Source: Nannocystis bainbridge (GTDB lineage: Bacteria > Myxococcota_A > Polyangia > Nannocystales > Nannocystaceae). Taken from it: a stretch of DNA of 64,000 bases. Below, in pieces: positions 8,735-64,000 of the stretch. Each line of letters starts with the position of its first letter. Within the stretch, counting starts at the first letter, position 1. The notes beneath the pieces are model-generated. The model did not search any database. It was not told the DNA's origin and worked only from the letters and a program-made list of their open reading frames with translations. A program made the position numbers and the translations under genes. The DNA lies in NCBI RefSeq assembly GCF_028368995.1, contig NZ_JAQNDL010000003.1, positions 64,001 through 128,000 on the forward strand. The letters run 5' to 3'.

Positions 8735-8766
8735 CATGTCTTTTCGGACATGTCGTAACAGACATC
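8735..8766. repeat. 14-bp palindrome array (TGTC-N6-GACA x2)
   Basis: tgtcttttcggaca|tgtcgtaacagaca at 8737-8764; a weaker pair at 8919-8946. Confidence 0.7.
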
Positions 8767-9090
8767 CTCGATCGCTGCCGCGTGAGCCGCGCGACGGGTC
8801 CGCTGCCCTCCGCGACGAGGACGCTCGCGACGCACGACCTCACGAACGCCGCGGGCGCCAGCCGCTCCGCGCCGGGTCTCACCCGGCTTGCGGAGCGCCC
8901 TGGCGCCCACGGCATGGCTGCACTTCAGGACATGTACTTCGGAGCAGGACTCTGGGTCGACACCGGAGCTGCTCGAGGGGCGAGGTTCGGCGCAGCCGGC
9001 GAGGCCGGTGCAGCCGTCGTGCGGCGCCCGTCGAGGCGCCGCGGGGCCGGTCCGCGCTGGCAGGGGGCTGGCCCTGGGCGCGGCGGTCGC

Positions 9091-9312
9091 TCAGCTCGTG
9101 TGCGCCGAAGCCGACGCCGACACCGCAGCGGCCTGTCCGCCGCGACGCGGCCACTCGAGGCCGAGCTTGACGATCCGCCGCTTGAGCGCGTGGCGGGTGA
9201 TGCCGAGCAGAGACGCCGCGCCGACGATGTTACCGGCGGTGGTGAGCGCCTCGTTGCAGAGGCGGCGTTCGGCGTTCTCGAGATTGAAGTCTTCCAAAAT
9301 CAGCTGTGGCAA
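9091..9312 (-). CDS. Small Fis-family helix-turn-helix protein
   Basis: NLENAERRLCNEALTTAGNIVGAASLLGITRHALKRRIVKLGL is an HTH_8 pattern; GGAG upstream. Confidence 0.82.
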   Translation of the reverse strand: MPQLILEDFNLENAERRLCNEALTTAGNIVGAASLLGITRHALKRRIVKLGLEWPRRGGQAAAVSASASAHTS

Positions 9313-9939
9313 GGTCCGTACTCCGTGTGACGATGTGTATATCGCAACGGAGTGTTCTCGCGCGGATCAAGCGGAGGCGCGGCGGCAACTCACGATCCCT
9401 CCTGCCCCGCATCCACGGCCCCTCGCGCCGCCTCCTCGCCCGCGAGGCCCCGTCCGCGAGCGGCCGCCCAGGGGGCCCTCCACGGCCTCTCAGGCCGACT
9501 TCGCGAAGATTCATCGCCGCGCTCGCGGGTCCGATCGCCGTCGCCGGTGGGCCGCGAGATCGGTCGAGTCCTGCACCCACGAACTATGACGACACGCGCG
9601 ATTCTGAGCGACGCCATTCTGCGGTGATGTCGGCCTCGCCAAGATCCACGAGCGGCGCGCTGCTGCGTTCGCGGCGGCTCGGCGAGAGCCGCGACGAATG
9701 TGCCACCCGACCCCACGCGTGGGTCCCCATCGCTCGCCGCCGCAGCGACCCGCGGCCGCGTCTCGGCGTTCGCAGGCGGCCCGCGATTGCCCACCCGTGC
9801 CCTGGCGTCCACCGCTGCCGCGGCGCGGGCCGGCGTGACGCCCTCGGCGGCCAGGCCGGCGGCGGGAGCGTCGGGATCGGGAGCGTGTCGGCCCGGATCT
9901 TCCGTGTCACGCGCGCCGGGGCTGCCTCGTCTCGGCCGC

Positions 9940-10665
9940 ATGCCCACCGCCACCGACCCCTCCCGTGACGCTGCGCGCGAGCGCGCGCTGATCCGCGTCC
10001 AGGCTGCCAGCGGGGCCCTGTTCGCCGTCTTCCTCGTGGCCCACCTCGTCAATCAGATGTTCGCCGCCGCCGGCCCGGCCGTGTACGACGCGATGCAGAT
10101 CCGGCTGCGCGCCGCCTACCACGCGCCGGCGATCGAGATCGCCTGCGTGCTCGTCCCGCTCGCGGTCCACGTCGTCGCCAGCGTGTGGCGCATGGTGCGT
10201 CGCCGCCGTCGCGGCGGCCCTGCAGCCGCCGCGCCGCGCATGCGATGGCAGCGACGCACCGCGATCGTCCTGCTGAGCTTCACCCTCGGTCACATCATCG
10301 CCACCCGCGGCCCCTCGCTGGTCTACGGCGTCTACCCCGAGTTCTCCGGCGTCGCCTACACCATGGTATGGCTCCCCGCCTATTTCATCCCCTATTATTT
10401 GTTGTTCTCGCTCGCCGGCCTCTATCACGCGCTGAACGGCCTGGCCCTCGGGCTGCCACGAATCGGCCTCGCCGGCCCGCCCGCGCTGCGCTCCGGCCGG
10501 GCCGTCGCCCTCGCCTGGCTGGCCGGCGCGGTCGCCCTGGCGCTCGGCATCGCCGGATTCGCCGGCGCATGGCACGACTTCCGCGAGCAGGCCGTCACCA
10601 GCCCCTATGCACAATTGCTGAGCGACCTCGGCGTCGCCGACAGCCCCCACGATTCGCACCCCTGA
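9940..10665 (+). CDS. Polytopic membrane protein with intramembrane His residues (DUF1691 / cytochrome b-like)
   Basis: VQAASGALFAVFLVAHLVN, LAVHVVAS, LGHIIATR, GLYHALNGL in hydrophobic helices. Confidence 0.65.
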   Translation: MPTATDPSRDAARERALIRVQAASGALFAVFLVAHLVNQMFAAAGPAVYDAMQIRLRAAYHAPAIEIACVLVPLAVHVVASVWRMVRRRRRGGPAAAAPRMRWQRRTAIVLLSFTLGHIIATRGPSLVYGVYPEFSGVAYTMVWLPAYFIPYYLLFSLAGLYHALNGLALGLPRIGLAGPPALRSGRAVALAWLAGAVALALGIAGFAGAWHDFREQAVTSPYAQLLSDLGVADSPHDSHP

Positions 10666-10873
10666 TGCGTGTCCCTCTCGTCGCCGACCGTCAAGTCGAC
10701 CGCGCCCGCGCATCGCTCGAACGCGATCTCGCCATGACTGCCCTCGCCGCCATGGCCGCGACGATGAACTCGATCTGAGGCCTCATCACCCCGACGAGGC
10801 CCGCGTCCTCATCATCGTGGCCACCTTCGCGTTCATCGGCCCGCCTCGCCACGCGATGCGGTACGCTCGCGCG

Positions 10874-12662: not shown

Positions 12663-13121
12663 CTATCTAGCGAAAGTCCCGGCGTCACATGCCATGCGGA
12701 CGTGATCGAGGCCGGGCCCGAAGCCTCCGGGTCGGACCTCGACCACGACGAACCCGTGCTTCGCGTAGAAGCCCTGAACTTTCTGCGACGTGTGCGTCTC
12801 GATCCGCCGGATCTGCGGATGCTCGCGCAGGAACGTCCCCAGGCGGTGATCCAGCAGCATCGAGCCGATCCCGGACCGCTGCCTTCGCGCGTCGATCATG
12901 CCCCAGCAGAGCGTCGCCGTGACTCCGTCTCGCTCGGCCGCGATCCCGCCCGATCCGACGATCTGCCCGCCGTCCTCGACCACGAAATAGGGCCCCGGGA
13001 GCGCGTCGAGGAAGCGGCCCAGCTCGGCCTCCTCGGGCGGCGAGAAATGTTCGGGGGTGTTGCCTCGCAGCAGCTCGAGACACGCTTCGCGATCGGCGGG
13101 AGAATAGGGGCGGATCTTCAT
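12663..13121 (-). CDS. GNAT family N-acetyltransferase
   Basis: MKIRPY start; RQRSGIGSML acetyl-CoA motif; GFYAKHGF. Confidence 0.88.
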   Translation of the reverse strand: MKIRPYSPADREACLELLRGNTPEHFSPPEEAELGRFLDALPGPYFVVEDGGQIVGSGGIAAERDGVTATLCWGMIDARRQRSGIGSMLLDHRLGTFLREHPQIRRIETHTSQKVQGFYAKHGFVVVEVRPGGFGPGLDHVRMACDAGTFAR

Positions 13122-13349
13122 CGGCGGCGCCTCGGGGTGATCCTGTGCTGGGCGATAAGACAGGACATCGCCTGCGATTGGCAAGACTCCGGCCGTGCGA
13201 GCGCCCGCGCTCACTTCCGCGCAATTGCCGCAGACCGTGTTCGCCGGGCGCGCCCTTCCGCGACGCCGGCTCTGCTCGCCCTCCCGCGCATTGCGCCGCC
13301 TCCGCGTTTGCCGGGCCCGCGAAATGGGCCATGCAGGACGACGAAGGAC

Positions 13350-13940
13350 ATGTCCGACGCGCCCAACCTCTCCGACGACGACGAGCGCGGCTGTCATTAC
13401 GCGCTGCTGATCATCGACATGATCAACGGCTTCGACTTCCCCGACGGCGAGCGCCTGCGCCACCAGGCCGGGCCCGTCGCGGAGCGGATCGCCGGGCTGG
13501 CTGCGCGTGCGCGGGCCGCCGAGGTCCCCGTCATCTACGTCAACGACAACTTCGGCCGCTGGCGCTCCGATTTCCGCCACGTGATCCAGCACGTCTGCCA
13601 GCACACCGCGGGCGCCGCGATCGCCGAGCGCCTGGCCCCGGGCGAGCGCGACTATTTCGTGCTGAAGCCGCGCCACTCGGGCTTCCTCGGCACCTCGCTG
13701 GAGGTCTTGCTGGCGCACTTGCGGGTGCGCAGCCTGATCGTCACCGGCATCACCGGCGACCTCTGCGTCCTTTTCACCGCGATGGACGCTTACATGCGCG
13801 GCTTCGAATTGCGGATCCCCGCCGATTGCGTCGCCTCGGTCGACGAGGCCAACAATCGCCGCGCCCTCGACCTGCTGCGCGAATCGATGCGCGTCGACAC
13901 CTCGCCTGCGCCCGAGATCGAGCTCCGGCGCGACTCGTGA
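13350..13940 (+). CDS. Isochorismatase-family cysteine hydrolase
   Basis: ALLIIDMINGF, VLKPRHSGF, TGITGDLCVLFTAMDA; AAGGA RBS. Confidence 0.92.
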   Translation: MSDAPNLSDDDERGCHYALLIIDMINGFDFPDGERLRHQAGPVAERIAGLAARARAAEVPVIYVNDNFGRWRSDFRHVIQHVCQHTAGAAIAERLAPGERDYFVLKPRHSGFLGTSLEVLLAHLRVRSLIVTGITGDLCVLFTAMDAYMRGFELRIPADCVASVDEANNRRALDLLRESMRVDTSPAPEIELRRDS

Positions 13941-14015
13941 GTCGCGCCATCGCTCGCGCTGTCGCCGGTCACGCCGCCGCCCTTCGACGCCGGCGGCGTG
14001 ACCCTCTTTGCGGGC

Positions 14016-19079: not shown

Positions 19080-19748
19080 TCACGGCCGCTGCCCGTCCAT
19101 CCCCTCGCGCGGGTCGCCGTACAGGGAGAAGCTCCGCAGGAACAACTCGCGGAATTGGGCGTTGCCGCGGAGGACGTGCACGATGAGGTGAAAGCGGTCG
19201 ACCTGGCTGTCGTTGACGACGGAATGCTCATAGCTGAGGTTGACCGCGAAGGCCCGCCCGTCGGCGAACGGGACCTCATGGACGACGCCTCGATCGCGGT
19301 AGAGGAACCGACAGCCCGCCGGATGGTTGAGCGCGATCGAGATCGAGGCGAGCTTGCGCTCGCTGTAATCGGCATGGAAGGGGACCCGCCCCCCCGGCCG
19401 GAGCAACATCAGCCGGACCCGGCCGAACTGCGCCTCCGGGAACGTGGTCTTGACATAGGCCGTCGTCGCGGGGCACAGGTCGGCCGCGTCCGTCCACTGG
19501 TACGCGTCCGCCTGGCCGGCCTCCGGGACCCCATAGGCCTCGAACCCGAGCGTCTTGTCGCTCCCCAGCCCGTGAAGGGCGAGGGCCTTCCAGCGGCCGT
19601 CCGGGACCTCGCCCTCGCGGTGATCCACGAATCGGGGGATGCGGCTCGCGGCCTCGGCGAGCATGGCCTCGCCCGGCGGCGGGATGTCCAGCCGCAGATA
19701 CGGCATGTCACTGTGAACGATGGAACCGTAGGAGCGTTCGTGATTCAT
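19080..19748 (-). CDS. Aspartyl/asparaginyl beta-hydroxylase-like 2OG-Fe(II) oxygenase
   Basis: RVRLMLLRPGGRVPFHAD...HSVVNDSQVDRFHLIVH (HxD...H, R). Confidence 0.82.
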   Translation of the reverse strand: MNHERSYGSIVHSDMPYLRLDIPPPGEAMLAEAASRIPRFVDHREGEVPDGRWKALALHGLGSDKTLGFEAYGVPEAGQADAYQWTDAADLCPATTAYVKTTFPEAQFGRVRLMLLRPGGRVPFHADYSERKLASISIALNHPAGCRFLYRDRGVVHEVPFADGRAFAVNLSYEHSVVNDSQVDRFHLIVHVLRGNAQFRELFLRSFSLYGDPREGMDGQRP

Positions 19749-20449
19749 GACATATTCCCGAGGTGCTCGGCCCGGGCGCTCGCCGCCCGGGCGACCGCGC
19801 CCATCCATTCATCGCGTGTGCGGGCGCGTACATGCTCAAGGCCTCGCTGGAGCACCTCGGCGTCGTGCCGCGCCATCCCGTGCGCAGCCGCGAGCGCCAG
19901 AGCTCTCAACGCCCCGGCCGGAACGACACGGGACACCAGCCTCCGCCGCTCCGCCTCCTGTGCGCCGATCAGGGCGCCGTCCAGCGCCAGCTCCAGCGCG
20001 TGCGCTTCGCCGATTCGCCGCGACACCGCCGGGAACACGAGATACGGCCAGAGCCTGCGCGTGACCTCCGGGAGCCCGAACTGGGCGTCGTCGGCGGCGA
20101 AGATGACATCTCCCAGGACGGCGAGCCCGAGGCCGCCGCCGACGGCGTGGCCCTGGACCGCGGTGATCAGGGGCTTCGAGAGCCACGCAAAGGCGGAGAA
20201 GAGCCGCTCGTGCGCGGGCGTCGTCTGCGACGCGCCGGCCTCCTTGAGATCGAGCCCCGCGCAAAACGACGGACCATCGCTTTGCAACAACAACACCCTG
20301 ATATCACCGGCGGCGGCGGCACCTTCGAACTCTTTTAGAAGCCCGTCACAGGTCGCGGCGTCGAGCGCGTTTCGCTTTTCGGGCCGGCTGATTGTCATGA
20401 TCCGCACGCCGCGATCGGTCTCGCCAACTACAGTCGTCCGCCCCACCAT
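19745..20449 (-). CDS. Enoyl-CoA hydratase/isomerase family protein
   Basis: ISRPEKRNAL, FCAGLDL, AVQGHAVGGGLGL, FGLPEV; 4-bp overlap with hydroxylase. Confidence 0.9.
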   Translation of the reverse strand: MVGRTTVVGETDRGVRIMTISRPEKRNALDAATCDGLLKEFEGAAAAGDIRVLLLQSDGPSFCAGLDLKEAGASQTTPAHERLFSAFAWLSKPLITAVQGHAVGGGLGLAVLGDVIFAADDAQFGLPEVTRRLWPYLVFPAVSRRIGEAHALELALDGALIGAQEAERRRLVSRVVPAGALRALALAAAHGMARHDAEVLQRGLEHVRARTRDEWMGAVARAASARAEHLGNMS

Positions 20450-21128: not shown

Positions 21129-23276
<2,148 letters not shown>

Positions 23277-23295
23277 AGCCCGAGGACTCAAGACC

Positions 23296-24021
23296 ATGCC
23301 TACCACTACACACGAACCTTCGGGTCTCATCGCCATCCGCGCCCTCGTCGACCTGGAGCGCGAGCGCCAGGACCGCGAGCAGGCCGCCGCAGCCGCCCGC
23401 GAGGCCGCCGAGGCCGCTGCCCGCGAGGTCGCCGAGGCCCGCGCCCGCGCCGAAGCCGAGGCCCTGGCCCTGGCCGCCGCCGAGGCCCGGCGCCGCGACG
23501 AGCGCCGGCTGCACGAGGAGCGACTGCGCGCCGCCGAGGTCGAGGGCCGGCTGCGGGCCGGCCAGGCGGCTCACCTGGCGCAGGTGCAGGCCGAGCTCGA
23601 CGCCCGGACCGGCCCCGCGCGCCCGGCCAGCGCCGTCGGCCTGTGGACCGCCGGCGCCCTCGGCCTCGTCGGCCTCGGCCTCGCGGTGCTGCTGAAGACC
23701 GCCACCGCCGCGCCCGCGCCCGCGCTCGCGCCGGTGGCCGCCGCCGAGGACACCTCGCTCCGCGACGCCCGCCAGGCGATCGCCGAGCTCCGGGCCGGCA
23801 TCGCCGACATCGAGCGCAGCAACGAGGCCGACCGCCAGGCCCTCGCCAACGCCACCGCCCGCGCCGCGGCCTCCGTCGTCGCCCCCGCGGCCGCACCCGC
23901 GCCGACGCGCCCGCGCCCGAGCGCCCGCCCGACCGCCAGGCCGGGCGACAAGCCCCCAGTCGCCAAGCCCGGCGGGCTCAAGATCTGCGACACCAACGAC
24001 CCGCTGGCCGAGGACTGCTGA
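23296..24021 (+). CDS. Hypothetical coiled-coil membrane protein with C-terminal CDxNDPL motif
   Basis: Ala/Glu/Arg coiled coil, TM LWTAGALGLVGLGLAVLL, Pro-rich linker, ends KICDTNDPLAEDC. Confidence 0.75.
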   Translation: MPTTTHEPSGLIAIRALVDLERERQDREQAAAAAREAAEAAAREVAEARARAEAEALALAAAEARRRDERRLHEERLRAAEVEGRLRAGQAAHLAQVQAELDARTGPARPASAVGLWTAGALGLVGLGLAVLLKTATAAPAPALAPVAAAEDTSLRDARQAIAELRAGIADIERSNEADRQALANATARAAASVVAPAAAPAPTRPRPSARPTARPGDKPPVAKPGGLKICDTNDPLAEDC

Positions 24022-24040: not shown

Positions 24041-24120
24041 CGACATGCCCGATGGATCATGCTCCGAAGGACATGCTCCATCGAGCATGTCCTCGAGGAC
24101 ATGCCCGATGGGGCATGAAC
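24041..24120. repeat. 14-bp-period palindrome array (6 CATG junctions)
   Basis: CATG at 24044, 24058, 24072, 24086, 24100, 24114, between convergent genes. Confidence 0.9.
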
Positions 24121-24123
24121 TCT

Positions 24124-24753
24124 TCAGCCGCCGGGCCCGCGGGGCAGCCCGCGGGCCGACAGCTCGCGGACCCAGTCGTCGAGGCGGTCGACCGTCGACG
24201 CGCGCAGCGCCGGCGTCTCGGCCAGGCGCTCGCAGGCGGCCACCACCAGCAGCCGGGCCTTGCGCAGGCGGCCGTACATGCCCGGCTCGGACAGCCCGTA
24301 CATGCGCGCCAGCTCGCCCGCGGTGGCGCCCTCGAGGTGGTAGAGCTCGAACGCGATCTGCAGGTCGATCGGCAGCTCGCGCAGCGCTTGCAGCAGGATC
24401 GTCTCCTCGCGCCGGTGGGCCAGCGCGCTGGTCGGCGACGGCCCGAAGCCTGCAAGCGAGTGCTCGATCGGGTCGAGGTGATCGGCGTCGCGGCGCTTGC
24501 GGCGGAGGTGCGTCAGCAGCACCAGCCGCGCCGTCCCGAGCACGTAGGTGCGGAACGCCGACTCGCCGCGGAACCGCTCCTTGCCCTCGCACATCGCCAG
24601 GAACGTCTGCTGGATCAGGTCGGCCGCCGCCGCCTCGCCGACCTTGTAGTAGAAAAACCGGCACACCGCGTCGAAGTGGCGCGCGAGCAGCGAGTCGCCG
24701 GCCGCGCGGTCGCCCGCGCGCCAGGCCGTCAGCAGCTCCTCGTCGCTCGTCAT
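24124..24753 (-). CDS. ECF-type RNA polymerase sigma-70 factor
   Basis: SDEELLTAWRAGD, DLIQQTFL...FRGESAFRTYV (region 2), ALRELPIDLQIAFELYHLEG (region 4). Confidence 0.92.
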   Translation of the reverse strand: MTSDEELLTAWRAGDRAAGDSLLARHFDAVCRFFYYKVGEAAAADLIQQTFLAMCEGKERFRGESAFRTYVLGTARLVLLTHLRRKRRDADHLDPIEHSLAGFGPSPTSALAHRREETILLQALRELPIDLQIAFELYHLEGATAGELARMYGLSEPGMYGRLRKARLLVVAACERLAETPALRASTVDRLDDWVRELSARGLPRGPGG

Positions 24754-24790: not shown

Positions 24791-25756
24791 TCACGCCGCC
24801 AGCGGCTCGATCCCGTACTCGCGGCGCAGGTCCTCGACCTGGCGATCCATCACCGCCCAGAAGTCCCAGTGATCGGTGAGGTCGAGCTTCGCCTGCGCGC
24901 CGCGGGCGAACGCTCGCACCACGTCGTCGATCGCGCCGGGCTTGTCGTTGTAGTAGCCGTGCGCCGGGTCGGCGAAGACCGTCAGGCGCAGGCCGTGCTG
25001 GCCGTTGAGCAGCACGAACACCAGGACGCTGAACGGGTCCTGGCGCTTGTAGCCGGCCTGGAACGCGAGCACGAGGCCCTCGCTCTGGAAATCGGTGCCG
25101 TAGCCGCCGAGGATGTGCGACAGGTCGTGCGTCAGCAGCGGCTCGGGCGCGCCGTGCTTCTCGCCGGGGAACTTGAAGCCGTTGGCGTCGTAGAAGCGCC
25201 ACAGCTCCTTGCCCAGCGAGCCGTCGGGGTAGTTCGCCAGCCCGCGGTAGCGCCCGGCCACCGCGCTGTTCTCCCACAGCCCGGCGAAGCTGCCGACGTT
25301 CTTGAGCACGCCGAAGAGGCCCTGCTTCTCGTACAGCTGCTTCATCGCCGGGCCGAGCAGGCTGCGGCGGATCACGTCGAAGCGCAGCGCCACCAGCCGC
25401 TCGGTCTGGAACTTGCGCAGCTGCGCCAGCGCGACCGGCTCGACCGCGAGCGCCGCCGCGTAGCCCTCGATCGCCGCCTGCTCCTCCTCGGCCACCGTGT
25501 CGCGGGCGAGCGTCAGCGTGACCATGCCGCTGATCAGCTGGGTCCGCAGCGCCGGGTCGTCGATCGCCTCTGCCAGCGCCGCGGGCGTGATCGGATCGAG
25601 CGCGTCGAGGTCGAACGCGGTGCGCAGCAGGTGCTGCTGGATCGCCAGGAGCGCCTCGCGGCGGATCGGCGCCAGCTCGCCGGCTGAGGTGAGTACGGTC
25701 TTCATGGCGCGAAGGCCGGCGTGGGCTTGCTCGTGGGTCGGGATCAGAAACGTCAT
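24791..25756 (-). CDS. Coq4-like metal-binding protein
   Basis: YPDGSLGK...HDLSHILGGYGTDFQSE = HDxxH-x11-E motif. Confidence 0.7.
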   Translation of the reverse strand: MTFLIPTHEQAHAGLRAMKTVLTSAGELAPIRREALLAIQQHLLRTAFDLDALDPITPAALAEAIDDPALRTQLISGMVTLTLARDTVAEEEQAAIEGYAAALAVEPVALAQLRKFQTERLVALRFDVIRRSLLGPAMKQLYEKQGLFGVLKNVGSFAGLWENSAVAGRYRGLANYPDGSLGKELWRFYDANGFKFPGEKHGAPEPLLTHDLSHILGGYGTDFQSEGLVLAFQAGYKRQDPFSVLVFVLLNGQHGLRLTVFADPAHGYYNDKPGAIDDVVRAFARGAQAKLDLTDHWDFWAVMDRQVEDLRREYGIEPLAA

Positions 25757-26066
25757 GGCTCGCTCTCCGTGGCCTCATCGTGCGCCGCCCCGGCCCGCCG
25801 CGCCTTGTCGCAGCGCGCCAACGATTTGTCGCCACGCGTCATCCGCCGCGCACCCTCGGAGCGCACGCGTCATTCGCCGCGCGCGTCTGCACCTCGTCAC
25901 GCGTCATGCGTCGCGCACCCTCGATCGGTCGCCCCGTCACCCGCCGCGCGGCGGCACATCGTCACGCATCATTCATCGCGCGAGCGGCGATGCGTCGGCA
26001 CTCGGCGGGCAACTGCGCCTCGCCGTCGCGCCTCACATCATCAGCCCGTGCTTGCTACCGTCATTC

Positions 26067-27228: not shown

Positions 27229-27286
27229 TATGACCCTTCGGACATGTCCTTTTCAACATTCTCTATCGGACATGTCCTTGTCGCCA
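27229..27286. repeat. 14-bp-period palindrome array (4 units)
   Basis: tgacccttcggaca|tgtccttttcaaca|ttctctatcggaca|tgtccttgtcgcca. Confidence 0.8.
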
Positions 27287-27443
27287 GATTGCCTTCACGC
27301 CTCGGCTCGCTGCGGCCACTACGCACCCCGGCTCGCGCAAGGAACCTCAGGCGCAGCCGCGCGCCGTGCTGCGGCGCGGCGGGCGAAAGATCGTGGTTCA
27401 CGCCGTTCACCGCCCCAATTTGCCGTCCGCGGAGGATCGAACC

Positions 27444-28289: not shown

Positions 28290-28311
28290 GCAGCGCGAGC
28301 GACGGCCCGCG

Positions 28312-33900: not shown

Positions 33901-34141
33901 GGCGGTCCCGGCGGGCAGCTACGCCGAGCTCGGGTGAACCGCTCCCGACCGGGCGAGGAGCCGTCCTCGCCCTCGACAATCTTCGGGCCGCGCGCCTACC
34001 CTTCGAGACATGTCCCTTCGCGCGGACCGATTGCCGCGTCCGGGTATGACCATGTCGTTCATCCTGCGAGCGCGACTTGCGATCATGCGAATGGGCCGAC
34101 CCGGCCCACCCACGTGCATTCGCGTCGGCTCCGCCTGAGCG

Positions 34142-44568: not shown

Positions 44569-44621
44569 CAGACGGCCATCTTCGTCCGGCGCCGCTTCGA
44601 TTCGCCGCGCCCGAGAGCCCC

Positions 44622-46416: not shown

Positions 46417-48189
46417 ATGGACATGTCCTTTCAGGCATGCGGGGCGCGCCGACCCGGCTCGCGCCCCCGCGCCGGCGCGCGCGCGGCCTCGACCGCGGTC
46501 CTCGCGGTCGCCCTCGGGGCGTCGTCGGACGCGCTCGCGCGACCCACGACCTGGCCCATCGAGCCTGTCCTTGCAGACAGCCTCTCCGAGGCGCGGTACC
46601 CGGCGCTCGGACATGTCCCCACGGACAGCCTCGCTAGCACGCAGCGCCCGGCGAGCGGACATGTCCCCACGGACAGCCTCTCAGTCGGCCCCGCGCTCCC
46701 CCGTAGCGACGCCGCGCCGCCGCAGGTCTCCGCCCCGGTGCCGGACCTCCGCGGCGCTCCGGCAGCGCGTGCCCCTGTCCCCGCGGACATGCGTCGTCCG
46801 CCGGCCTTGAAGCCCGGATCGCCGGCGCAGTCCGCCGGCGCGACCGAGGCCGCCGCGCTCGCCGGCCGCGGCGAGGGCCGGCCGGCCGCACCGCCGCCCT
46901 ACCGCCTGCTGCGCGCCGACGAGGACTACCGTTACCTGCGCGACCGCGGCCGCCGGGCCGGCTTCCTGGATGTCCTCAAGTACATCCCGCTCGGCCCGCG
47001 CGGCCGCGTCGCGCTCAGCTTCGGCGGCGAGACGCGCCAGCGCCTCGACTGGTTCCGCAACCTCGACTGGGGCGCCGGTCCGCCGCGCTCGCTGTCGTGG
47101 ATGCAGCGGTACATGTTCCACGCCGAGCTCCGGGCGCCGTACTTCCGCGCGTTCGCCCAGGTCAAGAGCGGGCTCGAGACGGGGCGGCCCGGCGGGCCGC
47201 GGGCGATCGATCGCGACGACTTCGACTTCCACCAGGCCTTCGCCGACTTCGACCTCGAGCGCCCGGGCCTGCGCCTCATCGTCCGCGCCGGCCGGCACGA
47301 GCTCGCGTTCGGCTCCGGCCGCCTCGTCTCGCCGCGCGAGGGCCCCAACGTGCGCCGCAGCTTCGACGGCGTGTCGGTCATCCTGTCCGTCCGCCGGGTC
47401 CACGCGCATCTGTTCGTCACCCGCCCGGTCGCCACCGTGCCCGGCGTCCTCGACGACGGCTGGGAGCGCGGTCAGTGGTTCGCCGGCGCCTACCTGACCG
47501 TGCCCTCGCCGCTGCGCGGCGGCCACGTCGACGTCTACGCGCTCTACCTCGACCGCCCTGAAGCCGAGTACCACCGCGGCCGGGCCCACGAGCGCCGCCT
47601 GTCCCTCGGGACACGTTGGTTCGGCGCCGCCGGGCGACTCGACTACAACGTCGAGGCGGTGCTGCAAACGGGGCGCTTCGGCGCCGCGCCGCTGCTCGCG
47701 TGGACCGTGGCCAGCGACACCGGCGTGCGCCTGCCGCTGCCGTGGGACCCGCGGCTCGGCCTGCGGCTCGACGTCGCCTCCGGCGATCGCGGCCCGGGGC
47801 GGCCCTTCGGCACCTTCTCCGCGCTGTTCCCCAAGGGCTCGTACTTCGGCGAGGACGCGCTGGTCGGGCCCGCCAATTTCCTCGACGCCCACCCGATGCT
47901 CACGCTGACGCCGGTCGAGCCACTGAGCCTCACCCTCGACTGGGTGGTCCTCGGCCGGTACAGCCTCGCCGACGGCCTCTACAACGTCCCCGGCGAGCCG
48001 ACGATCGCCGACCCCGGCGGCGCCCGGTTCGTCGGTCACCGCGCCGGCGCCACCCTCGAGGCCGAGCTCGGGCGGCACGTCGGCTTCGTCGTCACCGTCG
48101 GCCGCTTCTTCCGCGGCCCGTTCCTCGCGCAGGCCGGACGCACCCGCGACGTCGACTTCCTCGCCACCTGGCTGACCCTCAAGTTCTGA
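46417..48189 (+). CDS. Alginate export family outer-membrane beta-barrel with repeat-derived N-terminal extension
   Basis: LRADEDYRYL, LKYIPL, GRHELAFGSGRLVSPREGPNVRRSFDG, terminal LTLKF. Confidence 0.85.
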   Translation: MDMSFQACGARRPGSRPRAGARAASTAVLAVALGASSDALARPTTWPIEPVLADSLSEARYPALGHVPTDSLASTQRPASGHVPTDSLSVGPALPRSDAAPPQVSAPVPDLRGAPAARAPVPADMRRPPALKPGSPAQSAGATEAAALAGRGEGRPAAPPPYRLLRADEDYRYLRDRGRRAGFLDVLKYIPLGPRGRVALSFGGETRQRLDWFRNLDWGAGPPRSLSWMQRYMFHAELRAPYFRAFAQVKSGLETGRPGGPRAIDRDDFDFHQAFADFDLERPGLRLIVRAGRHELAFGSGRLVSPREGPNVRRSFDGVSVILSVRRVHAHLFVTRPVATVPGVLDDGWERGQWFAGAYLTVPSPLRGGHVDVYALYLDRPEAEYHRGRAHERRLSLGTRWFGAAGRLDYNVEAVLQTGRFGAAPLLAWTVASDTGVRLPLPWDPRLGLRLDVASGDRGPGRPFGTFSALFPKGSYFGEDALVGPANFLDAHPMLTLTPVEPLSLTLDWVVLGRYSLADGLYNVPGEPTIADPGGARFVGHRAGATLEAELGRHVGFVVTVGRFFRGPFLAQAGRTRDVDFLATWLTLKF

Positions 48190-48230: not shown

Positions 48231-48887
48231 ATGCCCACCGCCATCGCCGCCCCCGGCAAGACCCTCCTCACGCCCCACGACCACACCCTGATCCTGATCG
48301 ACTACCAGTCGCAGATGGCGTTCGCCACCAAGTCGATCGACGCCGTGCTGCTGCGCAACAACGCCGGCCTCGTCGCCCACGCGGCGCGGATCTTCGGCGC
48401 CTCGACGATCCTCACCACCGTCGCCGAGAAGAGCTTCTCCGGCCCGATCTTCTCGGAGATCAAGGCCGCGTTCCCCGAGCACGACGTCATCGACCGCACG
48501 TCGATGAACACCTGGGAGGACGCGAAGATCGCCGAGCGCGTCAACAAGCTCGGCAAGCCGCGTATCGTCCTCGGCGGCCTGTGGACGTCCGTCTGCATCG
48601 TCGGCCCGGCGCTGTCGGCCCTCGACCAGGGCTTCGAGGTCTACGTGATCGCCGACGCCTGCGGCGACGTGTCGAACGAGGCCCACGAGCGGGCGATGGA
48701 CCGCATGGTCCAGGCCGGCGCGCGGCCGATGACCTCGCTGCAGTACCTGCTCGAGCTCCAGCGCGACTGGGCCCGCGTCGGCACCTACGACGCAGTCACC
48801 GGCCTCGCCAAGGAGCTCGGCGGCGCCTACGGCCTCGGGATCATCTACGCGAAGACCATGTTCGGCGCGTCGGAGGGCGGGCACTAG
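48231..48887 (+). CDS. YcaC-type isochorismatase-family hydrolase
   Basis: LILIDYQSQM, IDRTSMNTWED, GLWTSVC, ELQRDW; GGAG RBS. Confidence 0.92.
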   Translation: MPTAIAAPGKTLLTPHDHTLILIDYQSQMAFATKSIDAVLLRNNAGLVAHAARIFGASTILTTVAEKSFSGPIFSEIKAAFPEHDVIDRTSMNTWEDAKIAERVNKLGKPRIVLGGLWTSVCIVGPALSALDQGFEVYVIADACGDVSNEAHERAMDRMVQAGARPMTSLQYLLELQRDWARVGTYDAVTGLAKELGGAYGLGIIYAKTMFGASEGGH

Positions 48888-48899
48888 GGTCCCCCCCCC

Positions 48900-49163
48900 A
48901 TGAAGCTCTACCTCGTCTCGCTGGCAGTCGGCGCGCTCGTCGGCGCCCTGTACAGCGCGCTCGGCGTGCGCTCACCAGCGCCGCCGCTCGTCGCGCTGCT
49001 CGGTCTGTTCGGCATGCTCCTCGGCGAGCAGGTCGGCCCGATCGCGCGGCGCGTGCTCGTGGGAGAGCCGCTGTCCGCGGCGTGGTTCGCCCGCGAGTGC
49101 GCGCCCAAGATCACCGGCGCTCCGGCGCCCGAACCCGCCCATGGCGACGCCGATGACCGATGA
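48900..49163 (+). CDS. XapX (DUF1427) domain protein
   Basis: YLVSLAVGALVGALYSALGVRSPAPPLVALLGLFGMLLGEQ. Confidence 0.88.
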   Translation: MKLYLVSLAVGALVGALYSALGVRSPAPPLVALLGLFGMLLGEQVGPIARRVLVGEPLSAAWFARECAPKITGAPAPEPAHGDADDR

Positions 49164-55240: not shown

Positions 55241-55513
55241 GTGCAATTCGAACGCGGCGAGCTCGAGGCGGCGCGCTCGTTGTACGAAGAGTCGCGGTCC
55301 ATCATCGACGAGTTGGTGCGGTCGTTCCCGCAGAAGCTCACCGAGCTCGCGCGGCTCCGCCGGGCGCAGGGCGACCGCACGCTGGCCCTCGACGCAGCGA
55401 ACCGGGCGCGATCGATCCTCGGGGCCCTGCTCGCCAGTCCTCCCTCGCCTCTGCCGGAGTGGGAGGACTGCGCGCGACAGGTGAACGCACTCATCACCGA
55501 GCTCAATGCCTAG
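55241..55513 (+). pseudogene. C-terminal TPR fragment
   Basis: RGELEAARSLYEESRSI...QGDRTLAL; no clear N-terminus. Confidence 0.45.
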
Positions 55514-55584
55514 CCGATCGAGTCGTGCGACGCGCGCGCGGCCGCGTGCGCGGCGACCCCGCGCATCACCGCGGTCAGCACGGC

Positions 55585-55803
55585 GAGCGCTGGCGCGGGG
55601 AGCTGATCGCGGACGGTGAGGCGCTGCTGTGGGCGGCGCTGGGTCCTCGCCCGGGCCTGCGGGCGCTGCGGGCGACGATCCACGCGGTGCACGCAGATCG
55701 CCGGCGCTCGGGGGTGACCGACTGGGCGGCGATCCTGACGCTGTACGGCACGCTGCTGCTGCTGCGCGACGACCCGGTGATCCGGGTCAATCGGGCGCGG
55801 GCG
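55585..55803 (+). pseudogene. Fragment of ECF sigma factor C-terminal extension (DUF6596-type)
   Basis: WRGELIADG...ATIHAVH...TDWAAILTLYGTL...PVIRVNRA. Confidence 0.6.
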
Positions 55804-55894
55804 AATTCGGGCCTGCACGGTGACCAGCTCCAGGCCGACATCAAGCTCCTGCTCGATCGCACGCGCCGGTGCCTGTGGGGCGGCCTTGTCGTCG

Positions 55895-56286
55895 CCGAGC
55901 GCTCGGGCGTCGTCGCGGAGCGTGTCATGGTCATTCAGGTCTTCGTAGCCGCACAGAAGGCCCAGCACACGCTGCGCCAGCAGCTCCTCGACGGTGTGCT
56001 CGATGCGGCTCGGGTCGCGGTGGTCCCGGAAGCAGGACGCGAACCTTCGAAACACACCTGAGCTCTTGGTCAGCTCGCGCAGCAGCAGCAAACCGCCGTC
56101 CGAGCTGACCCGTCCGGCGTCGAACGCAGCCTCGACCCGGCGGCGTCCGGCAGGTTGAAAATCGAACTCGGCGCGGATACACCTTGTCGTGTTCCGGCCG
56201 TACCCCTGGGTGGCCAGCAATCGTTTCACACCCGCTCAAACTCGGGAAGTACGGCCGGAATTCCTTACCGTGGTGAGAAATCCGGG
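55895..56286 (-). mobile_element. IS1380-family IS, left end plus 5' transposase fragment
   Basis: VEAAFDAGRVSSDGGLLLL...DHRDPSRIEH...QRVLGLLCGYEDLNDHDTLRDD; end CCCGGATTTCTCACC preceded by CTAG. Confidence 0.88.
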
Positions 56287-59980: not shown

Positions 59981-61033
59981 ATGGAGTTCTCTGCGCCGCC
60001 GCCGTGGTCATTCGCCCTCGCCCTCGCCCTCGTCGCTTGCGGGTCCACCGGCGGAGCCACGACCGACGACGCGACCGTCACCGGGGACAGCTCGTCGACC
60101 GGCGACGTCACCTCGACCTCGACCGGCACCTCCGCCCCCACCACCGGGTCCGACACCACCGGTCCTGCCGACACCACCACCACGTCGAGCACCACCGACG
60201 CGACCACCACCACGTCGAGCACCACCGAGCCCGCGACCACCACGAATGACACCACCACCGGCGATGACACCGGCGTCGGCCCGGGCTCGCGCTGCGAAGA
60301 GACGGCGACTACCATCACCTGCCCCAAGATCACCGTCGAGCTCGGCCCGTGGCAGCGCGACGTGCATTATCAGGTCCCGCTGGGTCAGCCGCCGGCGGGT
60401 GGTTGGCCGGTCGTGCTGATGTTCCAGGGCTCGTTCTTCAGCGCCGAGATCACCTGGATCGCCACCGACGACCTGCCCTTCGGCGCCTATTATCAGACCC
60501 ACGTCGTCAAGCGTTTGCTCGATCACGGCTACGCCGTCATCACCCCCGAGGCCAAGCTCGACGGCGGCACCTTCTGGGACACCAACATCCCGCCGTTTTC
60601 GCTCAACTGGGAGTCGTCGGAGGATCACCAGCTCATGCTGCTGATCTTCGCCGGCATCGCCGAGGGCGCCTTTGGCCCGCTCGACGCCGGGCGCCTGTTC
60701 GCCACCGGCATCTCGAGCGGCGGCTACATGACGAGCCGCATGGCCGTCTCCTACCCCGGCAAGTTCCGCGCCCTGGCGATCGCCGCCGGCTCGTACGCCA
60801 CCTGCTCGGGGCCGCTGTGCAGCGTGCCTGACCTCGACGACGGCCACCCGCCGACCCTGTTCCTCCACGGCGAGATCGATCTGACCGTGCCGCTCTCCAC
60901 TGCGGAGGAATACTACGACGAGCTGCTGGCCTCCGGCGTCGACGCGCGACTCGTCACCGAGCCCGGCGAGGGCCACGCGTGGATCGCCGCCTCGCCCGAA
61001 GAGGTCCAGGCCTGGTTCGACGGCCACCCCTGA
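59981..61033 (+). CDS. Lipoprotein esterase, mcl-PHA depolymerase-like
   Basis: LALVAC lipobox, Thr-rich linker, QVPLGQPPAGGWPVVLMFQGS, GISSGG, FLHG..D, GH. Confidence 0.82.
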   Translation: MEFSAPPPWSFALALALVACGSTGGATTDDATVTGDSSSTGDVTSTSTGTSAPTTGSDTTGPADTTTTSSTTDATTTTSSTTEPATTTNDTTTGDDTGVGPGSRCEETATTITCPKITVELGPWQRDVHYQVPLGQPPAGGWPVVLMFQGSFFSAEITWIATDDLPFGAYYQTHVVKRLLDHGYAVITPEAKLDGGTFWDTNIPPFSLNWESSEDHQLMLLIFAGIAEGAFGPLDAGRLFATGISSGGYMTSRMAVSYPGKFRALAIAAGSYATCSGPLCSVPDLDDGHPPTLFLHGEIDLTVPLSTAEEYYDELLASGVDARLVTEPGEGHAWIAASPEEVQAWFDGHP

Positions 61034-61044
61034 TTGTCATCACC

Positions 61045-61839
61045 ATGTTCGCCCGCAATCACGACACCCGTATCTACTACGAGCTCGGCGGCCGCGCCGA
61101 CGGCCCGCCGCTCCTGCTCCTGCGCGGCCTCACCCGCACGATCCGCCACTGGGGCCCGCTGCTCGACGACCTCGGCGCCAGCTTCCGCACCATCGCCATC
61201 GACAACCGCGGCGTCGGCCACAGCGACAAGCCGTTCGGCATCTACTCGACGCGCACCATGGCCGACGACGCCGTCGCCGTGCTCGATCACGCCGGCATCG
61301 GCGAGGCGGCCGTGTTCGGCATCTCGCTCGGCGGCGCGATCGCCCAGCAATTGGTCCTGCACCACCCGCAGCGCGTGCGGCGGCTGGTGCTCGGCTGCAC
61401 CCGCGCGAGCGGCAAGGACGGCCCGCCGGCCAGGCTCTCCACGGTCCTGAGCCTGCTGTCCCTGCTGTGGCTGCCGGAGGCCCGCGCGCTCGAGCGCTCG
61501 ACCCCGCTGGTGCTGTCGCCCGCGTTCCTGCGCGAGCACCCCGAGATCGTCGGCGAATGGCAGCAGCTCGCCGAGCAGTTCCCGACCCGCCGGCGCGCGC
61601 TGATCGGTCAGCTCGGCGCCGTCCTGCGCCACGACACCCGGGCCCGGCTCGGCACGATCGCCGTCCCGACCCTCGTCGTCAGCGGCGACGACGACCGCCT
61701 GATCGACGTCGCCTGCTCGCACGCCCTCGCAGCGGCGATCCCCGGGGCCCGGCTCGAGCTGCTGCCAGGCGCCGGCCACGACATCCCGGCCGAGCGCCCG
61801 CGCGAGGTCGCCGCGCTCCTGCGCGAGTTCTGCCTGTGA
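61045..61839 (+). CDS. Alpha/beta hydrolase
   Basis: DNRGVGHS, GISLGG, GDDD, GAGH. Confidence 0.9.
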   Translation: MFARNHDTRIYYELGGRADGPPLLLLRGLTRTIRHWGPLLDDLGASFRTIAIDNRGVGHSDKPFGIYSTRTMADDAVAVLDHAGIGEAAVFGISLGGAIAQQLVLHHPQRVRRLVLGCTRASGKDGPPARLSTVLSLLSLLWLPEARALERSTPLVLSPAFLREHPEIVGEWQQLAEQFPTRRRALIGQLGAVLRHDTRARLGTIAVPTLVVSGDDDRLIDVACSHALAAAIPGARLELLPGAGHDIPAERPREVAALLREFCL

Positions 61840-61844
61840 CGAAG

Positions 61845-61990
61845 GGACATGCCCGATCGGGCATGTCCCTTCGTTTATGCCCTCAAATACATGTCGTTCT
61901 GGACATGTTCTATCGTTCATGGCTGTCTGATGCGCTTGAGCACCACGAGAGGACATGCCCCCGAGGGCATGTCCTCTCGGCCATGTCTCT
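61845..61990. repeat. 14-bp-period palindrome array (6+3 junctions)
   Basis: CATG/TATG at 61848, 61862, 61876, 61890, 61904, 61918, then 61954, 61968, 61982; between convergent genes. Confidence 0.9.
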
Positions 61991-61993
61991 GGA

Positions 61994-63079
61994 TCAACCG
62001 CGCCGCTTGACCAGCGCCAGCCCGAGGCCGAGCACGAACAGCAGGAAGCGGGCAGCGTCGCTCGGATCGCCGCCGTCGCTGCTGCACGCGCAGCCCTTGC
62101 CGTCGTCGTCGCCGCCGGCGCTGTCGCTGTCGCTCGACGTATCGCCGGTGGCGTCGCCGGTGGCATCGCCGGACGTATCGCCGGTGGTCGGCCCGGTGTC
62201 TGTCTCCTCGCCGGTGGTCGGCTGCACCTCGCTCGCGCACGCGCTGCCCGGCACCGCGTCCGCCTCGGTCCAATCCGGCTCCGCCGGCGAGTCGATCTCG
62301 TGGGCGATGTCGTCGGTGCGGGCGTAGCAGGCCGAGCACAGCTCGAACGGCTCGGCCGCGTTGCCGGCGGCGTCGATCGCCGACACCTCGAAGCAGAGCT
62401 TCTGCGGGTCCCAGCTGCCGAGCTGCGTCTCGTGCAGCCCCACCCGGGCCACGAGCGCATCGCCGTCGGCCCGCACCGTCCGGCGCACGCCGAGCGGTCC
62501 CTCGCCGTCGGGGTCCCAGGCGATCGTGAAGAACGTCGGATCGCCGGGCGCGGGGTCGGTCTGGCCGAGGTGGAAGTAGAACGTGAGGTCGGTGTCGCTC
62601 TGGCAGTCGCCGCCGCTCGACACGAAGTCGCGGTGGTCGTAGACCGCGAAGAACGACGCATCGACGATCGGCGCCGGCGCCCCGACGTCGTCCGCGCTGG
62701 CGGTATAGGTGATCGTCGTCGGCTCGCATTCACCCGGATCGCAGAAGGTGCCCGACACCACCACGACCTGGCCCTCGGTCGGCGCCGGCTCGACGAACGC
62801 GCTCGCCGCCGCCAACGAGACCCCGAAGTCCGCCGGCACCAGCGTGGCCGGCTCGCCGTCGACCGTGACGGTCACGTCGTCGAGCTTGATGTAGTAACCG
62901 TTGAACAGCAGCGCCGCGTTGCCCGGGTGGGTGGTGCCGTCGACCGGCAGCGAGCTCTCCAGGCCCGGCGGCGGCGGTCCGCAGGCCTCGGCCGGGCGCG
63001 CGACCAAACCAGAAAGGGCACACGCGCCGATAAGCGCGGTGCCCTGCACGAAGCGACGGAAGCCGGGGGTCTTCAGCAT
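61994..63079 (-). CDS. Exported protein with MYXO-CTERM-like sorting signal
   Basis: Signal peptide ...ARPAEAC; C-terminus KGCACSS...FLLFVLGLGLALVKRRG. Confidence 0.85.
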   Translation of the reverse strand: MLKTPGFRRFVQGTALIGACALSGLVARPAEACGPPPPGLESSLPVDGTTHPGNAALLFNGYYIKLDDVTVTVDGEPATLVPADFGVSLAAASAFVEPAPTEGQVVVVSGTFCDPGECEPTTITYTASADDVGAPAPIVDASFFAVYDHRDFVSSGGDCQSDTDLTFYFHLGQTDPAPGDPTFFTIAWDPDGEGPLGVRRTVRADGDALVARVGLHETQLGSWDPQKLCFEVSAIDAAGNAAEPFELCSACYARTDDIAHEIDSPAEPDWTEADAVPGSACASEVQPTTGEETDTGPTTGDTSGDATGDATGDTSSDSDSAGGDDDGKGCACSSDGGDPSDAARFLLFVLGLGLALVKRRG

Positions 63080-63354
63080 GATGCGGGTACATCTGCAAGC
63101 CACGCGCACCACCCCCGATCGTGAGTGATTTCCGCCGGTTGCGGCGGCTCTCGGGGCCCCGGGTGACGTGCCACATGGCGCGACTGTCCCGGTCACGACG
63201 CGCGCGCCGGCCCCGTCTGCGCCCGCGCACGCGGGGCCCGATGCGCGCCCGCGGGGGCAGTCTGTCCCCCGGGACAGCTTTTTAAAGATGTCTTTCAGGA
63301 CATGTTATTGGCGGCCCGGTCGTCGGCGCCCCGCGATTTCGCTACTCTCCCGGC

Positions 63355-64000
63355 GTGTCGCGTCCGCACGCCGCGCTCTGGCTCGCCGGCCTCCTCCTGT
63401 GGGCGTTCGCCGCCCTGGCCGCGCCGGCCGCGGGCCTCGTGCTCGCCGCGGCCGAGCCGGGCACGCCGGTCCGGCTGCCGACGCTGCTGGCGATCGCCGG
63501 CGACAGCCTCGTCCTCGCGGCCGCGCTCGCCGGCCTGGCGCTCGCCCTCGCCTACCCGCTGGCGCGCGCGGTCACGGCTCCGTGGCTGCTGCTGTTCGTC
63601 ATGATCGCCCCGCTGGCCCGGGCGATCGGCGCGCTCGCGCTGGGCCTGTCCCCCGGGACAGGTGCCGTCGCGCTCGCGCGGCTCGCCGGCGATGTCCCGC
63701 TGGCCGCCCTGCTGCTGCGCGCGCGGCTGCGGACCCGCCCGCGCAGCTGGCTCGACGCCGCCGCCGATCTCGGCGCCGGGCCGTGGCGGCGCTTCGTCAC
63801 CGTCGAGTGGCCGCACCTGCGCCCCGCCTACGCGCTGGCCGCGGTCTGCCTGGTCTTGCTGGCCCTCGGCGACGCCACGATCGCCGCGGTCGCCGGCGGC
63901 GGCAAGCGCTTCACCCTCGGCCTGGCCCTGCGCGAGGCCGTCCTGCTCGACGCTCATCCGCGGCGCGCCGCGGCGATCGCCGCCCTGTTCGCCGCGATCG
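63355..64000 (+). CDS. ABC transporter permease (PotB/C-like), runs off right edge
   Basis: Manual translation from GTG 63355 is hydrophobic, with EAA-type loop WLDAAADLGAGPWRRF; absent from ORF track. Confidence 0.78.
   Translation, partial: MSRPHAALWLAGLLLWAFAALAAPAAGLVLAAAEPGTPVRLPTLLAIAGDSLVLAAALAGLALALAYPLARAVTAPWLLLFVMIAPLARAIGALALGLSPGTGAVALARLAGDVPLAALLLRARLRTRPRSWLDAAADLGAGPWRRFVTVEWPHLRPAYALAAVCLVLLALGDATIAAVAGGGKRFTLGLALREAVLLDAHPRRAAAIAALFAAI

Follow-up and report, generated by a model that had tools for sequence, protein, structure and literature searches.

We analyzed 64,000 nucleotides of the Nannocystis bainbridge genome (contig NZ_JAQNDL010000003.1, positions 64,001 to 128,000; here called the window), in which short palindromes follow one another head to tail in arrays with a 14-bp period. 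The gene content of the window is myxobacterial and includes Ser/Thr kinases with TPR or AAA_16-GAF-STAS domains, DUF4388 with Roadblock/LC7, a nonribosomal peptide synthetase (NRPS) module, and an extracytoplasmic function (ECF) sigma factor. The arrays lie mainly just behind the stop codons of ordinary genes, and among the matches listed in a scan of other genomes, the motif family is largely restricted to the Nannocystis/Nannocystaceae lineage. From these sequence data, we hold with moderate confidence that the arrays are a lineage-specific gene-end element acting in both directions, comparable to repetitive extragenic palindromic (REP) sequences and bacterial interspersed mosaic elements (BIMEs), in which hairpins would be combined with a putative protein reader.

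The period stands out clearly from shuffled sequence. The window has a GC content of 70.9% and contains 232 CATG tetranucleotides. Pairs of CATG at 14, 28, 42, and 56 bp number 12, 8, 11, and 5, compared with means of 0.60, 0.74, 0.68, and 0.70 (maxima of 3 to 4) in 200 dinucleotide-preserving shuffles of the window; at the remaining distances from 5 to 100 bp, the mean is 0.91 and the maximum is 4. An earlier reading of this DNA, made by a model from the letters alone (the sequence-only reading), had claimed a 14-bp phasing of CATG, to be checked by a genome-wide histogram, and a family of TGTCC-N4-GGACA palindromes. Both claims are borne out, the second by 19 copies with at most one mismatch where 1.72 are expected. 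GGACATGTCC, again with at most one mismatch, also occurs 19 times (1.88 expected), and for neither motif did any of 100 shuffles reach 19. The arrays account for only about 5 of the 11 pairs at 42 bp; pairs at this distance with no CATG between them occur at 19662-19749, 7716-7761, and 48857-48902, some of them in coding DNA.

The arrays and single sites of the window are as follows.

8735..8766, no strand: short array with CATG at 8735 and 8749 and a decayed third site (CATC, 8763), separated by 72 nt from the preceding stop, that of the + gene 7794-8663
8919..8946, no strand: two units, both decayed, that keep the TGYCC-N4-GGRCA register and include a single CATG (8931); by the frame plot, it shares one convergent spacer with 8735..8766
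13346..13355: lone perfect GGACATGTCC in open reading frame (ORF) 12702-13940, at the isochorismatase domain or immediately before it
22640..22672: GGACATGTCC followed by TGTCCCTCGGGACA, within the Ser/Thr kinase ORF 21129-23336 (-)
24041..24120, no strand: six-site array, every CATG 14 bp apart, filling the interval from the + gene 23296-24021 to the ECF sigma factor gene 24124-24753 (-); N4(1), GATG, is complementary to N4(3), CATC
27229..27286, no strand: two perfect copies of GGACATGTCC, 28 bp apart, and decayed units
33997..34054: weak decayed array, its CATG at 34009 and 34051; it follows the stop of 34142-39259 (-), which encodes a 1705-aa kinase, at about 90 nt
46419..46439: two-site array; it begins 7 nt after the amidohydrolase gene 44202-46412 (+), whose stop codon is at 46410-46412
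46566..46789, no strand: four dispersed units in a spacer without coding signal, before an alginate-export gene (CTGTCC-N4-GACAG; two copies of GGACATGTCC-CCAC-GGACAG, 48 bp apart; CTGTCC-CCGC-GGACATG)
47600..47613, no strand: lone TGTCCCTCGGGACA in coding DNA
61841..61921: array of five CATG and one TATG that begins immediately after the stop of gene 60979-61839 (+), which encodes a hydrolase; sites one and two make up a perfect palindrome, and its 16-nt arms reach into the flanking N4 (GAAG/CTTC)
61946..61985: three-site array with a perfect palindrome of 15-nt arms (GAGA/TCTC); 9 nt separate the end of the array from the stop of gene 61994-63196 (-)
63262..63285, + strand: lone hairpin, CTGTCC-CCCG-GGACAG, and then CTTTTT
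63287..63304: one decayed unit, ATGTCT-TTCA-GGACATGT, adjoining the hairpin at 63262..63285
63647..63660: lone TGTCCCCCGGGACA within the ABC-permease ORF that starts at 63355, which may be due to chance or driven by codons

Much of this had been described correctly in the sequence-only reading, namely, the six CATG in 14-bp steps at 24044-24117, the three at 61954-61985, the two each at 46422/46436 and 8735/8749, and the lone copies of TGTCCCCCGGGACA at 63263 and 63647. Other entries need amendment. The array at 61848-61921 is real, but it holds five CATG and not six, with TATG at 61876. Four sites had been claimed at 27229-27286; two perfect copies of GGACATGTCC are there, 28 bp apart, and the rest is decayed (TATG and CATT, between and before them). 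A 14-bp spacing of CATG is not found at 8919-8946, where the single CATG (8931) lies 18 bp from the next one (8913) and an array can be traced only in a decayed TGNNC-N4-GNNCA register. The array at 33997-34054, described as weak, has its two CATG 42 bp apart. The four units at 46566-46789, the pair at 22640-22672, and the single sites at 13346 and 47600 had been missed.

Distribution and structure of the repeat family

We scanned 185,579 species-representative genomes for a pattern of two full units with 20 fixed letters, CATGNCC-N4-GGNCATGNCC-N4-GGNCATG. At least 85 loci (given L numbers below) match it, and 80 of them were tabulated. Nannocystis/Nannocystaceae account for 66 of these 80, in agreement with the lineage specificity proposed in the sequence-only reading. 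As lower bounds, the tabulated matches number at least 20 in RBIL2, at least 16 in N. pusilla Na p29, at least 13 in N. exedens DSM 71, at least 8 in N. punicea FL3, at least 3 in N. radixulma, and at least 6 in five metagenome-assembled genomes (MAGs). At least nine Nannocystis/Nannocystaceae assemblies carry the same letters, at scores of loci in all; by arithmetic from base frequencies, chance would yield about 5e-5 matches per 12-Mb genome. The other 14 tabulated matches come one each from unrelated genomes, nearly all of high GC content, and all but one or two of them are minisatellites with identical or near-identical units. Among the matches inspected, the only one outside Nannocystaceae that is not a minisatellite is L017, a single locus in an AT-rich MAG of Bacillota, with four GGACATGTCC-like sites partly in the 14-bp register. 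By megablast and blastn, the window resembles none of the fetched loci beyond the level of paralogues. Extrapolating from the window and the locus flanks, we estimate that arrays occur at on the order of 10^3 loci per genome. No description of the motif family was found in the literature covered, which did not extend to subscription journals and supplements; the papers listed for the 10-mers (20 of 47 and 25 of 129) concern eukaryotic or otherwise unrelated topics, mostly p53, and none concerns a bacterial repeat. Neither GGRCATGYCC as such nor the motif spelled with N4 occurs in the 25 listed papers.

The unit was defined from a pooled sample consisting of the window and 71 loci, that is, the 85 scan loci minus the 14 outside Nannocystis; L081 to L085 were kept in the pool without organism assignment. 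The 259 units with CATG 14 bp apart give the consensus CATG-Y-C-C-N4-G-G-R, which amounts to a 10-bp palindrome, GGRCATGYCC, plus a 4-bp spacer, N4. The spacing is kept rigidly: there are 164 copies of TGYCC-N(k)-GGRCA with k = 4, compared with 4 with k = 3 and 3 with k = 5, and outside the matches to the scan pattern, the nearest neighboring CATG is found at 14 bp in 97 cases, at 13 bp in 2, and at 15 bp in 6. The spacer itself varies widely. After collapsing strands, N4 falls into 72 classes among the 259 units, the most common being GAAG/CTTC (n = 20), and its two central positions are 63 to 66% A/T in a genome of 71% GC. Arrays often terminate in half-sites, CTGTCC..., ...GGACAG, or ...GG-N-CAG, and the terminal half-site is often made by a stop codon, as in TGACC-N4-GGRCATG or with the stop within CATGACC. 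Arrays in the seeded sample have 3, 4, 5, or 6 sites in 35, 27, 16, and 3 cases, respectively, and the smallest in the window have 2. A 14-bp period with variable parts of 4 bp, rather than unique spacers of about 30 bp, agrees with the earlier statement that these are not clustered regularly interspaced short palindromic repeats (CRISPR). Rfam 15 gives no gathering-score match anywhere in the window.

Four groups of orthologous loci carry arrays at the same place, with 4/4/4, 4/4, 3/3, and 3 versus 4 CATG sites; the single lost site reads CAGG. Within these arrays, identity reaches 59 of 64 positions at CC/GG and 23 of 32 at Y/R, compared with 29 of 64 (45%) in N4. The identity of 88 of 88 at CATG follows from how a run is defined and was not counted as evidence; the conservation of CATG is judged from the retained number and register of sites. 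Coding flanks are 96 to 97% identical in the three-species group (L021/L058/L066), and spacer DNA beside the arrays likewise shows strong differences. Given the drift of N4 and of the neighboring spacer, our reading is that N4 is probably near-neutral, while CATG, CC/GG, and the register appear to be under selection.

N4 is identical in adjacent units in 17 of 350 cases, compared with 1% of random pairs, and in units two apart in 8 of 245 (for this test and for those of N4 complementarity, perfect arms, and compensated stems below, the orthologous duplicates L058, L066, L079, L080, and L081 were left out). At L008:1932-2175 (N. pusilla Na p29), a block of about 72 bp occurs four times in tandem, each copy with a three-site array, suggesting that whole arrays can be duplicated together with their flanks. 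At L051:1800-2000 (N. punicea FL3), a 60-bp block comprising the last codons, the stop codon, and the first array unit occurs about three times. Taken together with the shared N4 of adjacent units, these tandem copies suggest that arrays grow by duplication in register.

Position of the arrays relative to genes

Gene context was assigned with a crude ORF caller that uses GC at codon position 3. The 84 strong arrays thus classed comprise 44 between convergent genes, 14 in “++” and 14 in “--” order, 1 between divergent genes, 7 “in ORF,” and 4 at a locus edge; among the 73 with a flanking-gene class, 44 are therefore convergent, 28 tandem, and 1 divergent. The array at 24044 in the window was called “--” by this procedure and is convergent by codon-position GC. 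This miscalled row, the 7 “in ORF” rows, and the 4 edge rows were left out of the distance statistics. A stop codon lies within 30 nt of 56 of 71 arrays. Stop codon and array are separated by a median of 18 nt (n = 115), compared with 186 nt toward a downstream gene, and in 19 of the 44 convergent cases, both stops are within 30 nt, the array being the entire spacer. The longest arrays of the window do lie between convergent genes, as had been observed earlier: 23296-24021 (+) and 24124-24753 (-) in one case, 60979-61839 (+) and 61994-63196 (-) in the other. A generic GC hairpin takes the place of an array in the convergent spacer 13941-14015, which suggests that the arrays occupy a terminator niche. 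In unselected DNA (the window plus locus flanks, about 0.3 Mb), 11 of 152 gene ends have the strict motif within about 80 nt. At L022:1443-1661 (N. pusilla Na p29), three CTGTCCCGCGGGACAGGTCG-like hairpins lie about 85 to 120 bp apart, a dispersed arrangement comparable to that of window 46566-46789.

The genes next to arrays are ordinary and unrelated. Pfam matches were obtained for 73 of 124 array-flanking ORFs, including tyrS, gltX, dnaK, uvrA, pckG, and a penicillin-binding protein gene, and no transposase is among these 73. No Y1 transposase of the REP-associated tyrosine transposase (RAYT) type was seen among the 50 ORFs of the window or the 124 flanking ORFs, and the ISL3 and DDE transposase genes of the window are not adjacent to arrays.

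The sequence-only reading had also described the motif as missing from foreign-looking segments. The count agrees, since no site of at least 13 bits lies in 28.4-34.0, 34.1-46.4, or 47.2-61.8 kb, but the statistical case is weak, with P of about 0.05 when 27% of the window is assumed to be “island,” only about 10 clusters, and segments picked by eye. GC falls to 0.65-0.68 at 28-33 and 39-43 kb, compared with 0.71-0.75. These lower-GC segments (28000-33600 and 39300-43500) hold no strong motif site, carry an ISL3 transposase gene (28028-29044, -) and SDR, LysR, and AraC genes, and look recently acquired. An integrase arm-binding fragment is present at 33625-34179, and a DDE_Tnp_1_4 fragment is present at 55510-56229.

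Elsewhere in the window, 1-3807 (-) encodes one NRPS module (condensation, adenylation, and carrier domains) that runs off the edge. The region 6544-8663 holds DUF4388/TPR and Roadblock/LC7 genes and then two ORFs that overlap, 7717-8127, which has no Pfam match, and 7794-8663, which the frame plot favors (+, at least from about 8100). A small-GTPase regulatory module of the MglB type may be encoded here. Just upstream of gene 24791-25756 (-), at 25829-25981, is a 65-bp tandem repeat (2.4 copies, 77% match). The in-frame tandem repeats at 23394-23507 (24/48 bp, ORF 23296-24021, +) and 60173-60271 (15/30 bp, ORF 59981-61033, +) are low-complexity coding repeats.

Hairpins, a putative protein reader, and rival explanations

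For the long arrays of the window, folding z-scores range from -4.6 to -7.7 on either strand, values that are largely a consequence of the consensus itself. Perfect 10/10 arms between adjacent sites number 23, compared with 11.1 +/- 2.8 in permutations made within classes to allow for the scan bias. The excess is confined to perfect stems; mean arm complementarity of adjacent sites is 7.69 versus 7.59 when permuted. In 11 of 245 cases, N4(i-1) and N4(i+1) are exact reverse complements of each other, compared with about 1.1% of random pairs, and compensated stems outside the consensus are seen in some perfect palindromes (CTC/GAG, GTC/GAC, CTT/AAG, and TCT/AGA). Tetraloops are weakly enriched (GNRA, 41 versus 34 expected; UUCG, 7 versus 2.2). 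In our reading, a minority of units are perfect palindromes, either young or perfected, and the bulk is held by letter and spacing rather than by pairing.

A position at gene ends like that of terminator hairpins and REP/BIME sequences, together with the folding of both transcripts, leads to the REP/BIME-like reading given at the outset. An array on either transcript would fold into long hairpins, which would halt or pause read-through and protect the 3′ end of the mRNA. CATG, CC/GG, and the rigid register are not explained by pairing, which points to a putative sequence-specific protein that would read these letters and their spacing. Arrays would grow by duplications of 14 or 28 bp and by palindrome-perfecting events, after which N4 would drift freely.

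The sequence-only reading had proposed a lattice for a cooperatively binding dimeric protein or a self-propagating micro-element, and had set the arrays apart from classic REP hairpins. Its proposal of a protein that reads sequence is favored by the absence of covariation at Y/R (see below), by the near-exclusive 4-bp spacer, and by the retention of CATG and CC/GG as N4 drifts. The lattice idea likewise gains from lineage specificity and from the conservation of letters and register. Its rejection of a REP-like hairpin does not hold up against arrays that sit behind stops, mostly between convergent genes, form highly stable hairpins on either strand, and include an excess of perfect palindromes and compensated stems. 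The diversity of N4 and the absence of transposases among the Pfam-matched flanking ORFs weigh against the micro-element, not decisively.

Several results run counter to an element that works through RNA hairpins at gene ends. The Y and R beside CATG assort independently (T-G 51, T-A 47, C-A 45, and C-G 43), giving 96 Watson-Crick pairs versus 95.4 expected and thus no covariation, and non-consensus states at CC/GG show little coupling. No U-tract is found behind the arrays: T makes up 7 to 17% at positions 14 to 32 past the last CATG of 162 array ends, and the 30 nt that follow each of 19 oriented arrays contain 1 to 8 T. The arrays are therefore not canonical intrinsic terminators. An RNA-type strand asymmetry (G.U over A.C) was rejected in the 19 arrays whose transcribed strand could be guessed, each nucleotide being counted once (sense T:C 38:23 versus A:G 33:34; Fisher p = 0.16), and GNRA/UNCG loops are equally frequent on both strands. 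The number of arrays falls steadily with size, indicating that pairs of sites are not favored. The array at 27229-27286 lies in the divergent spacer between an araC-like gene, 26067-27074 (-), and a BON gene, 27366-28289 (+), and the hairpin at 63262-63285, the only unit with a canonical terminator-like T-run, also sits in a divergent spacer. Furthermore, 14 of 47 unbiased motif clusters fall in confidently coding DNA, mostly as single CTGTCC-N4-GGACAG, and the context counts rest on arrays seeded with three in-phase CATG as well as on the crude ORF caller.

Many of these results suit a lattice on double-stranded DNA alone, a serious rival that we nonetheless judge rather unlikely. A symmetric dimer would bind each GGRCATGYCC or TGYCC-N4-GGRCA, with neighbors 14 bp apart, about 120 degrees around the helix, and in contact; hairpins would be a by-product of symmetry. 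The resulting filament could serve as a transcription roadblock or insulator, as a loading site for a topoisomerase or nucleoid protein, or as a chromosome self-marker. Such a lattice accounts for conservation by letter without covariation and for rigid spacing, and it is consistent with arrays that are fully symmetric relative to the direction of transcription, an A/T-rich center of N4, no preference for even numbers of sites, CATG kept in orthologues while N4 drifts, and the occurrence of some arrays in promoter-type spacers (27229-27286 of the window; L022). However, a reader of double-stranded DNA has no need for excess perfect palindromes, compensated stems, or complementarity between N4(i-1) and N4(i+1), although palindrome-perfecting mutation could yield the same excess, and the stretch 0 to 30 nt behind stops is where RNA 3′ structures act. 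Nor is there a candidate protein. CdbA, a sequence-biased nucleoid protein of Myxococcus, was ruled out as the array reader, since its site is described as a GC-rich direct repeat with 4-bp separation and not as a palindrome (PMC7156744).

A protein could also be the core of the gene-end system itself. We think it unlikely, though worth stating, that a Nannocystis-specific symmetric protein polymerizes on the 14-bp lattice behind about 1,000 genes, acting toward RNA polymerase as a roadblock or insulator in both directions or, between convergent genes, as a topoisomerase landing pad. This arrangement would resemble the terminator-protein arrays of eukaryotic RNA polymerase I and mitochondrial mTERF and not an RNA-hairpin device.

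A selfish or neutral repeat without host function, spread by a RAYT-like or other enzyme or by slippage and gathering where it does no harm, strikes us as improbable. Accumulation at harmless sites would also produce a bias toward 3′ ends and convergent spacers, and the shared N4 of neighboring units, the tandem copies of whole arrays in L008, the 60-bp triplication in L051, the excess of perfect “young” palindromes, and the lack of sites in the low-GC, IS-bearing segments of the window would all be consistent with it. Yet there is no master copy among the 72 N4 classes, spacers of k = 3 and k = 5 are almost absent, and the arrays hug the stop codon rather than scatter through the spacer. No Y1 or other transposase was seen among the Pfam-matched flanking ORFs or the ORFs beside the arrays of the window, and arrays that stay in place in orthologues from three to four species, with CATG, CC/GG, and the register kept beside N4 at 45% identity, indicate purifying selection and not decay. 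Given this retention and the lack of a master copy, we consider a selfish repeat less likely than either the lattice or the gene-end element.

Ordinary features, either plain Rho-independent terminators such as the hairpin and T-run at 63262-63285 or chance 14-bp minisatellites without shared identity such as the 14 tabulated matches in unrelated high-GC genomes, are very improbable and largely refuted, since no T-run follows the arrays, the same letters recur far beyond chance across assemblies, and units within an array differ in N4, unlike those of most of the 14 outside matches.

Comparison with known systems

The ends of transcription units in very GC-rich bacteria, where hairpins lack a U-tract, are poorly understood, and so is the function of REP-like repeats. 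The motif described here offers a clean handle on both: it is short, sharply defined, and present at the stop codons of many ordinary genes, and simple mutations suffice to separate its letter conservation from its pairing. Should there be a reader protein, the arrays would represent a new sequence-specific system of gene boundaries; if not, they would be a model for the birth, growth, and decay of palindromic repeat families. In practice, the motif could mark resident as opposed to recently acquired DNA in Nannocystis and point to gene ends in annotation.

Three kinds of known system come close. Cooperative operator arrays include the met-boxes of MetJ (8-bp palindromes head to tail), the heptads of omega proteins, and the hexamer arrays of Fur. 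The Nannocystis arrays share with them abutting symmetric units, a strict register, two symmetry centers per period, a variable copy number, and conservation by letter rather than by pairing. Those operators, however, lie in regulon promoters and plasmid centromeres, whereas the Nannocystis arrays lie behind the stops of unrelated genes; a promoter-type location is seen in 1 of 73 classed arrays (divergent) and in the window exceptions at 27229-27286 and 63262-63304. The 10-mer GGRCATGYCC also fits the p53 half-site consensus, RRRCWWGYYY, letter for letter. No bacterial p53-type DNA-binding domain is known, although no search aimed at one was made, and we treat this match as a coincidence.

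Terminator hairpins are a second point of comparison. Bidirectional and “I-shaped” hairpins, the latter without a U-tract, occur between convergent genes; hairpins lacking a U-tract have often been reported in high-GC genomes. Like them, the arrays are GC-rich symmetric hairpins that fill convergent spacers, would serve both transcripts, and have no U-tract. Such terminators share no sequence family, whereas the Nannocystis loci repeat the same letters and the same 14-bp register, with stems that do not covary. Compared with a canonical intrinsic terminator, the arrays have the GC-rich hairpin just downstream of the gene and lack the U-tract.

The third comparison is with REP/BIME elements, found in E. 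coli and other proteobacteria, which consist of REPs of roughly 35 bp with linkers and have GTAG or CGTC at the foot of the hairpin. A miniature inverted-repeat transposable element (MITE) or an element of the REPIN type was rejected, given 72 N4 classes in 259 units and flanks unshared between loci. The unit also departs from REP proper in being a 10-bp palindrome on a 14-bp register, with free spacer sequence. It is its own reverse complement and thus has no alternating orientation, its core is CATG, and no RAYT gene was seen among the ORFs of the window or those flanking arrays. The consensus of 259 units and 351 sites has no GTAG or CGTC column, and for lack of this head, we place the family outside REP proper. 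Like REP/BIME elements, however, these are lineage-restricted, imperfect, extragenic palindromes in many copies that lie behind genes and between convergent genes, form clusters of fixed spacing, are able to fold in mRNA, and keep letters beyond what pairing requires. We therefore assign the family to the extragenic-palindrome kind, as an apparently undescribed counterpart in Nannocystis of the REP/BIME elements of E. coli.

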